Assembly: GCA_963665845.2 (NCBI GenBank)
Contig: CAXXJD010000002.1
Location: forward strand, 1 to 15,776
DNA from: Candidatus Poribacteria bacterium
GTDB lineage: Bacteria; Poribacteria; WGA-4E; GCA-2687025
Direction: 5' to 3'
DNA: 15,776 nt
A program made the position numbers and the translations under genes. The notes under the pieces were generated by a model. That model did no database searches. It was not told the origin of the DNA and saw only the letters and a list, made by a program, of their open reading frames with translations. Position 1 is the first letter of the stretch; each line of letters starts with the position of its first letter. Below, in pieces: positions 13,094-14,339 of this stretch.

Positions 13094-14339
13094 ATGACGA
13101 ACGCCAACTTTGCCAGTCGAACCATGTGGACAGGCGACAACCTGAACATCATGCGCGGCATGAACTCCGCCTGCGTCGACCTGATCTACCTTGATCCGCC
13201 CTTCAACAGCAAACGCGACTACGCCGCGCCGATCGGATCAAAGGCGGCGGGCGCTGAATTCAAAGACACATGGTCGCTGGAGGATGTGGACGTCGAATGG
13301 ATCAACCTGATGGAATCGAGTTATCCGGCGATGCATCGGGTCTTGCTCGCCGCGATGAGCGACTCGGACAAAAGCTACCTCGCTTACATGGCAATACGTC
13401 TGCTGGAAATGAAGCGGATCTTGAAGCCGACCGGTTCAATCTACCTGCACTGCGACCCGACGATGAGCCACTATCTGAAGCTGCTGATGGACTCCATCTT
13501 TGGACGGAAGAATTTTAGAAATGAGATCGTCTGGTTCTATCCAGATTCTCCTGGACGAAGTACAAAATACTTTCCCAAAAAGCATGACATCATCATCTGC
13601 TACAGCAACGGAGGGGAGACGGTCTTCAACGGCAACGATGTGCGCATTCCGCTGAAAGCCGCCTCGATTCGCCGATACCAATCGCCGCGCACAATCGGCG
13701 GGAAAACATACCTCGGCGGCGAGGGGGCGAGTAAGGGCAAAATTCCTGAAGATGTCTGGCAAATACCCGTTGTTAAAAAACACCGCGGATCCAAAGAGGC
13801 TACAGGTTATCCGACGCAGAAGCCTCTCGCGTTACTGAACCGCATCGTTAAGGCGTCGTCCAATGAGGGCGATCTTGTTCTGGATCCGTTTTGCGGCTGC
13901 GCAACGACGTTGGTCGCAGCCGAGGACCTGGGCCGCAACTGGACGGGTATTGACATCAGCCCAAAGGCATCCGAGCTGGTCGTGTCGCGCATCGAAGAGC
14001 GGCAGGGGTTGTTCAAAGACATCGTCCACCGCAGCGACATTCCGAAACGTACTGACCTAGGCAAGCTTCCCCGACCCGCGACTCACAAGAAAACTTTATA
14101 CGGCGAGCAGTCGGGGCGACTGCGCAGGATGCGACGTCCATTTTGAAGCGCGCCATCTTGAACTGGATCACATCATCGCCAAGTCAAAGGGCGGAACCGA
14201 CCATATCGACAACCTCCAACTGCTATGCGGCGACTGCAACCGAAAGAAAGGCAGTCGGGGCATGGAGTATCTGCGCACTAGACTTCGACTTGGGATTCAG
14301 ATGCAGGAGGGCAAGAGCGCGCGGGGGCGCGCCCGCTAA
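13094..14339 (+). CDS. Beta-class N6/N4 DNA methyltransferase fused to a C-terminal Zn-binding HNH endonuclease, about 414 aa; one frameshift in GGGG at 14113-14116
   Basis: MTase: GDNL, VDLIYLDPPFNS (motif IV), LKPTGSIYLHCD, NFRNEIVW, DVW, YPTQKPLALLNRIVKASSNEGDLVLDPFCGCATT (motifs X/I), WTGIDIS. Removing one G gives LYGEQSGDCAGCDVHFEARHLELDHIIAKSKGGTDHIDNLQLLCGDCNRKKG..., ending at TAA 14337-14339: CxxC..DH..GG..N..CxxCN. Confidence 0.88.

Follow-up and report, generated by a model that had tools for sequence, protein, structure and literature searches.

The window analysed here is a stretch of 15,776 nucleotides that forms contig C3 of a Candidatus Poribacteria genome (G000), the main contig of which is C1; a congener, G001, was used for comparison. 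In the last part of the window an ORF for a DNA methyltransferase (MTase) runs from 13094 to 14146 and loses the frame of its family after Q339/S340. The next frame, at 14115-14339, encodes an HNH nuclease domain (CAGC..LDHII..KGG..DNLQLLCGDCNRKKG) and has its stop codon at 14339 (Table 1). A promoter scan returned 3 sites against 0.8 expected in shuffles, and the promoter-like site upstream of the gene, a consensus match only, agrees with the suggestion of an earlier note on this DNA that the gene has its own promoter. Sequence common to the window and the congener ends on the upstream side at about window position 13010, so the promoter region is part of the replaced cassette. Downstream, at 14341-15776, an FRG-domain and TPR gene is broken in two places by extra bases, at 14769 and at 15173. 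It follows the fusion gene only in the C3 haplotype; in C1 its place is taken by tandem TPR-UPF0175 / DUF3368 pairs, and in the congener by such pairs together with a long TPR-UPF0175 gene. The stretches 1-4753 and 6740-12945 hold frameshift-broken ORFs whose translations, judged by eye, look like a TrkH potassium transporter, SelA and SelB, and a 2063-aa secreted protein of C25/gingipain-like appearance.

Table 1. Features of the MTase-HNH gene and its surroundings (positions in the window)
Feature	Position	Strand	Remark
Sigma-70-like promoter candidate, TTGATG-17-TATACT, 9/12	13023..13051	+	consensus match only
N-terminal constant part of the MTase with motifs IV-VIII, including DPPF at 13193-13204	13094..13534	+	
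Variable target-recognition segment (TRD), residues 148-237	13535..13804	+	TRD homologues also on other chassis, Mrr-type among them
MTase C-terminal constant part: GYPTQKP; SAM-binding motif DPFCGCA at 13883-13903	13805..13990	+	
Linker (HRSDIPKRTDLGKLP...) between MTase and HNH	13991..14110	+	R319 and D321 the same in all 121 sequences aligned
G run with one extra base, C3 contig only (apparent frameshift)	14113..14116	+	
Cys4 zinc-binding HNH domain: C343/C346, D358-H359, N373, C378/C381, N382, K385; stop codon	14115..14339	+	
High-copy REP-like palindromic repeat	14354..14415	.	directly after the stop; C3 haplotype and main contig diverge there

The window is an indel-rich, error-rich strain copy of the main contig: aligned with G000:C1:1286347-1300671 it is 97.5% identical, with 330 substitutions and 35 gap positions. 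Within the fusion gene, the two contigs differ by a single indel, a G added to the run at 14113, and the C1 copy is an unbroken ORF of 414 aa. The HNH frame was hidden by a frameshift at 14113-14116, and the protein is compact (~414 aa), as the earlier note had proposed. Of the 20 places in the window with a single extra base, 19 are homopolymers made longer by it. The contigs of all four public runs that span the GGGG at 14113-14116 lack the extra base (contigs and not reads, from at most 4 samples in 2 studies). Judging from these comparisons, the extra G most likely arose by long-read error, the strain haplotype being one of low coverage. Since the contigs over 14113 carry a C1-like or another allele, a real frameshift restricted to the C3 minor haplotype stays conceivable and may exist; before the break, this haplotype differs from C1 in the fusion gene by 27 synonymous and 4 non-synonymous changes. 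Separate MTase and HNH genes, or a programmed frameshift, were rejected in view of the fused homologues, the C1 ORF, the run contigs and the homopolymer type of the extra bases. The MTase and HNH are a genuine, intact one-gene fusion.

The residues follow the order DPPF (34-37), TRD (148-237), GYPTQKP, DPFCGCA (264-270), linker and Cys4-HNH (343-388), and the two Pfam profiles named in the earlier note for checking, N6_N4_Mtase and HNH, matched with E 3e-53 and E 1.6e-14. Motif order (IV-VIII, TRD, X-I-III) and fold are those of a beta-class amino-MTase. An AF2 model computed with a 121-row alignment (pLDDT 90.8, pTM 0.89) matched the beta-class enzymes M.BceJIV, M.RsrI, M.MboIIA, CcrM and EcoP15I Mod with Z 24-29, M.BceJIV being the best (Z 28.8, rmsd 2.0, 245 aligned) and EcoP15I Mod reaching Z 24.2. 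The C-terminus of the model gave middling matches to the HNH domains of Cas9, Gme and IscB (Z 6-7.5) and a match to that of McrA (Z 5.5); in sequence, the HNH resembles the En domain of a group II intron maturase, Cas9 and IscB. The description of a beta-class MTase with a C-terminal HNH in one chain holds. The HNH, McrA-like according to the earlier note, is structurally as close to the Cas9 and IscB domains as to McrA. No NCBIfam or PADLOC model spans the whole fusion.

Fusion of the two domains is the rule outside this genome. Both Pfam domains were present in 119 of the 120 best protein homologues, and a single fused ORF was found at 74 of 80 species-genome loci (full catalytic motif at 71), which answers the concern that homologues might be separate genes. 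The C-terminal half matches 391 clusters at 50% identity (E<=1e-30). The titles of the 80 loci name Poribacteria, Chloroflexota, Acidimicrobiia, Acidobacteriota, Alpha- and Gammaproteobacteria, Rhodothermales and others, which we take to be mostly sponge symbionts from names such as Poriferisocius and from one run labelled sponge metagenome. The host of the query is probably one of the Poribacteria, the best named match to its L21 having 62% identity. Within this phylum, 97 of 151 genomes have matches at E<=1e-40; the highest number was in G000 (at least 18) and the others had at most 8, the best 23 candidates being scored per genome. A search of 31 genomes with the full protein gave 50 matches in G000, 28 in the congener and none in 16. 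None of the 8 matches in a plasmid collection covers >=80% of the fusion, and among phages 1 of 41 does so, in Marinitoga phage MPV1 (L196:2716-4272; 92% covered), where the homologue adjoins a CI-like repressor. A relative of different build, P0185 (1598 aa), starts with a replication-like region, after which come three MTase modules of the family in tandem, with different TRDs.

The copy number, about which the earlier note had asked, is 40 family ORFs on C1 of G000: 23 MTase-HNH, 13 MTase-Mrr_cat, 2 with an unassigned C-terminal domain and 2 truncated ones without a nuclease. All 13 Mrr-like proteins have a D..D..QxK-type motif (2 of them just below the Pfam cut-off), and the same MTase chassis bears either HNH or this nuclease. 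The single-chain fusion with intact catalytic residues supports in part the all-in-one R-M system suggested earlier; the gene is no lone oddity but one of 40 paralogues with exchangeable TRDs and two alternative nucleases. Four MTase-HNH genes (L012:3001-8420) and three MTase-Mrr genes (L028:2004-6477) form head-to-tail arrays with largely different TRDs where the congener has one copy; the congener loci L139, L141 and L143 are of the HNH type. The four TRD stretches of the larger array were confirmed by contigs of two runs, a third run not covering one of them, and the run contigs aligned to it gave no interpretable TRD swaps. At L033:2004-3893 an orphan HNH-end fragment stands head-to-head with an intact family gene, an arrangement that suggests recombination between paralogues. 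There are also two GmrSD_N-HNH fusion genes in G000 (L035:3825-4907 and L036:2001-3080).

In paralogue pairs the DNA is 85-96% identical along ~460 nt of the 5' end and 500-700 nt of the 3' end, but not in the stretch between. The median TRD identity was 27% across 38 paralogue pairs with N parts >=80% and C parts >=75% identical, and just 1 of 630 pairs among 36 parsed proteins reached a TRD identity of >=60%. At 55% identity the 38 parsed G000 TRDs fall into 36 clusters, and 101 parsed database homologues into 41. The converse was also seen: a TRD of G000 and one of G001 share 98% identity on chassis that share only 49%/37%, and DNA identity for this pair is 90-98% across the TRD vs 38-82% in the flanking windows. 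The TRD of one Mrr-type protein has 82-84% identity to those of three HNH fusions, and homologues of the query TRD (50-64%) occur on Mrr-type and other C-termini. At orthologous sites of G000 and G001 the TRD is the same at some and different at others, with some kept TRDs 81-95% identical. TRDs have been exchanged between chassis, HNH and Mrr types included.

The catalytic residues D358, H359, N373, N382 and K385 and the four Cys, like the DPPF and FCG motifs of the MTase, are invariant in 121 aligned rows; these comprise the query, 110 of the 120 listed homologues and 10 paralogues, and leave out an HNH-less homologue, length outliers, near-duplicates and a catalytically altered paralogue. 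With intact D-H/N/N/K and Cys4, the HNH does not look catalytically dead. Catalytic H and N are kept in 21 of the 22 aligned G000 HNH paralogues (23 exist, one was left out), and dN/dS is 0.094 for the HNH and 0.10 for both constant parts of the MTase (pooled over 12 non-independent paralogue pairs). The HNH is under purifying selection as strong as that on the MTase. From the alignments, such conservation means that the domain matters and says nothing for foreign DNA as its target. In the one paralogue without H and N, change in the HNH is relaxed (dN 0.168, dS 0.31); its congener orthologue is dead as well, and both genes persist. Such survival in two species, together with the two truncated copies and shorter proteins that share the query TRD without a nuclease Pfam match (some probably fragments), would fit a repertoire of methylases, serving epigenetic ends or shielding DNA against the restriction enzymes of other symbionts and so easing DNA exchange in the sponge, with a nuclease that is weak, tightly regulated or often idle. 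We find this improbable, however, in view of the retained H and N and of a dN/dS that is equal in HNH and MTase. Less credit still is due to a modification-dependent Type IV (McrA/Mrr-like) nuclease directed at foreign-methylated DNA, with the MTase fold as reader. Mrr_cat and McrA-like HNH domains are described as typical of Type IV enzymes (PMC12707154), and the model does match McrA, but the MTase looks active because its DPPF and FCG motifs are invariant, and no SRA, EVE or wH reader domain, nor another reader Pfam family, was found.

Among 95 ORFs scanned beside the G000 copies (picked from 152 heuristic candidates plus one, with shadow frames dropped), no REase or transposase family was found and most matches were metabolic, in line with the earlier remark that no partner REase lies nearby. 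One TRD and no partner gene were found at the locus; Type IIG in the broad sense of Blow et al. has a single TRD for the whole system, on which the HNH here would have to depend. Outside G000, an IS1595 transposase adjoins at least 16 of the 80 related loci, a lower bound because one ORF per side was scanned (144 of 147 candidate ORFs); these loci are like IS1595 elements with passenger genes, and three of the IS1595-associated copies lack the full catalytic motif. Unlike such passengers, the G000 copies had no IS1595 transposase detected beside them; the query is flanked by a large divergent ORF and by genes of TPR/UPF0175 or FRG-TPR type. Recent transposition of family genes in G000 was rejected, as none of its 22 near-identical repeat pairs touches one. 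One G000 copy is inserted as a bare ORF between co-oriented genes where the congener has a 23-nt empty site, and at the locus orthologous to the query the flanks in G001 are the same but enclose an MTase-Mrr gene that has an upstream region of its own. Going by the two genomes, whole family genes are gained, lost or replaced at orthologous sites.

Alternatively, the gene might be a selfish, self-spreading cassette. Its HNH would nick or cut unmethylated chromosomal sites mainly so that the gene is retained (post-segregational killing), or to set off recombination by which the gene or its TRD is copied; defence against phages would come second. The bare insertion, the carriage by IS1595, the arrays of four and three genes and the similarity of the HNH to the maturase En domain, Cas9 and IscB are all in its favor. 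However, the G000 copies are old and divergent with none in a multi-copy element of >=95% identity, no target-site duplication is evident at the one clean empty site, and the TRDs are non-redundant and some are kept between congeners, as expected under selection on breadth of the repertoire. We consider this explanation unlikely.

A comparison with known systems places the fusion close to one class without a full match. Type IIC enzymes carry R and M in one chain, mostly with an N-terminal PD-(D/E)xK nuclease and a gamma-class MTase (as described in PMC4081073), and the fusion likewise has both domains in one polypeptide. A Type IIC enzyme further shows both activities and cleaves at a fixed distance from a specific site, and Type IIG cleavage is stimulated by AdoMet or depends on it; of such activity, the fusion has the intact catalytic residues. 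As in the Type IIC/IIG enzymes MmeI, Eco57I and BpuSI, there is one TRD and no separate REase, and paralogues appear to diverge in specificity (PMC4081073, PMC2731913). The classical Type IIG layout of these three (gamma-class, N-terminal PD-(D/E)xK, C-terminal TRD or specificity domain) is not that of the fusion, which is beta-class with an internal TRD and a C-terminal Cys4-HNH within 414 aa. The N-terminal nuclease that the earlier note took as classical is indeed usual, but an MTase-first, nuclease-last precedent is given in PMC4081073 by BtgZI, a known exception among Type IIC enzymes. Its C-terminal PD-QxK resembles, by description, the 13 Mrr-like paralogues, whereas its alpha-class MTase and a nuclease other than HNH set it apart from the fusion. 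With Type III Mod proteins (H. pylori, EcoP15I) the family shares the beta-class fold and a variable internal TRD; in Helicobacter pylori, TRDs move between non-orthologous Mod loci via conserved flanking motifs, as reported in PMC3467074. Unlike Type III systems, the nuclease is built in, there are ~40 loci per genome, and an adjacent Res helicase-nuclease is missing, with none in the 95 G000 neighbour ORFs and 1 ResIII match in the 144 neighbour ORFs of the 80 loci. Orphan M.BceJIV, CcrM, M.RsrI and M.MboIIA are the best sequence and fold matches (residues 7-303) and, unlike the fusion, are without an HNH domain. On sequence grounds, the best reading is an enzyme like Type IIC/IIG with Mod-type TRD mobility, outside the classical IIG layout and without the Type III partner.

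The explanation that we prefer, with a probability of roughly 0.6, is a one-gene R-M enzyme in which one TRD would guide the MTase to sites of the host and the HNH to incoming DNA, to be cut near sites that lack methylation. Because the ~40 related fusions differ mainly in a swappable middle segment, they are likely a large set of one-protein R-M enzymes, each probably specific for its own DNA sequence. A single HNH site cuts one strand; cutting of both strands, and protection after replication by one-strand methylation, are difficulties for the preferred explanation. One-strand modification is described for the MmeI family (PMC2731913). Beta-class MTases act as dimers (PMC11380664); a dimer of the fusion, if formed in the same way, would join two single-strand-cutting HNH sites, and double-strand cleavage would need the dimer or two sites. 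Homologous recombination within the conserved motifs on either side of the TRD could create new specificities with self-protection unbroken, since methylation and cutting would share the TRD and a swap would leave the host protected. Protected swaps of this kind could let a cell accumulate dozens of copies and tolerate two interchangeable nucleases, and IS1595 elements are the likely carriers of the gene from one species to another. The persistence of dead-HNH copies and the three incomplete IS1595-associated copies also weigh against the preferred explanation. If about 36 specificities were active at once, they would outnumber the motifs of any of the 230 methylomes in PMC4752239, where the highest count is 19, so many copies may be silent or act as methylases only.

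We put forward, more tentatively than the R-M function itself, that the family is a diversity-generating restriction library, with ~40 dispersed and tandem cassettes and ~36 TRDs shuffled by recombination across HNH and Mrr-like chassis, from a TRD pool common to unrelated sponge-microbiome phyla. One cell would then have more restriction specificities than any methylome covered in PMC4752239, and would hold compact 400-aa reprogrammable methylase-nucleases. What this locus adds is the expansion to 40 genes and 36 TRD clusters in one genome and TRD exchange across nucleases. Dozens of short (~80-160 aa) swappable TRDs on near-identical chassis form a natural panel, which makes TRD-to-motif mapping and the engineering of specificity directly testable. 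The coupling of methylation to HNH cleavage in a beta-class dimer is a question raised by this architecture, which is apparently uncharacterised: a characterised beta-class MTase-HNH fusion was not found in the literature consulted, including the available text of PMC12707154, PMC4738411, PMC12114051, PMC4752239 and PMC8919816, a scope apart from REBASE, subscription journals and supplements. It may account for part of the enrichment of R-M genes in sponge symbionts, which PMC5649159 describes at the COG level.

Several words are avoided on C1: GGCC has an O/E of 0.15, GAGCCC/GGGCAC/GAGCAC (GDGCHC-type) have 0.05-0.12, and ACGCGT, CCCGAG and CTCAG are avoided too. Judged from word counts, this avoidance is R-M pressure, without assignment to the fusion family. 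The flanks of most congener family copies map to distant places. A special role of family genes as rearrangement breakpoints was dropped because a control showed breaks every ~6 kb with few near family genes (16 of 118 have a G000 family gene near), and mobilisation by REP repeats was not supported, flanking repeats being frequent but inconsistent. Between C1 of G000 and G001 (~88-92% identical; L156-L172, L176-L195) there are 118 synteny breaks in 737 kb, one per ~6 kb. Ninety of them lie <=100 nt from a block of high-copy REP-like repeats, of which there are 2035 (chance alone would give 26.6, a figure uncorrected for intergenic bias), and repeat-driven genome shuffling between the two genomes is possible.
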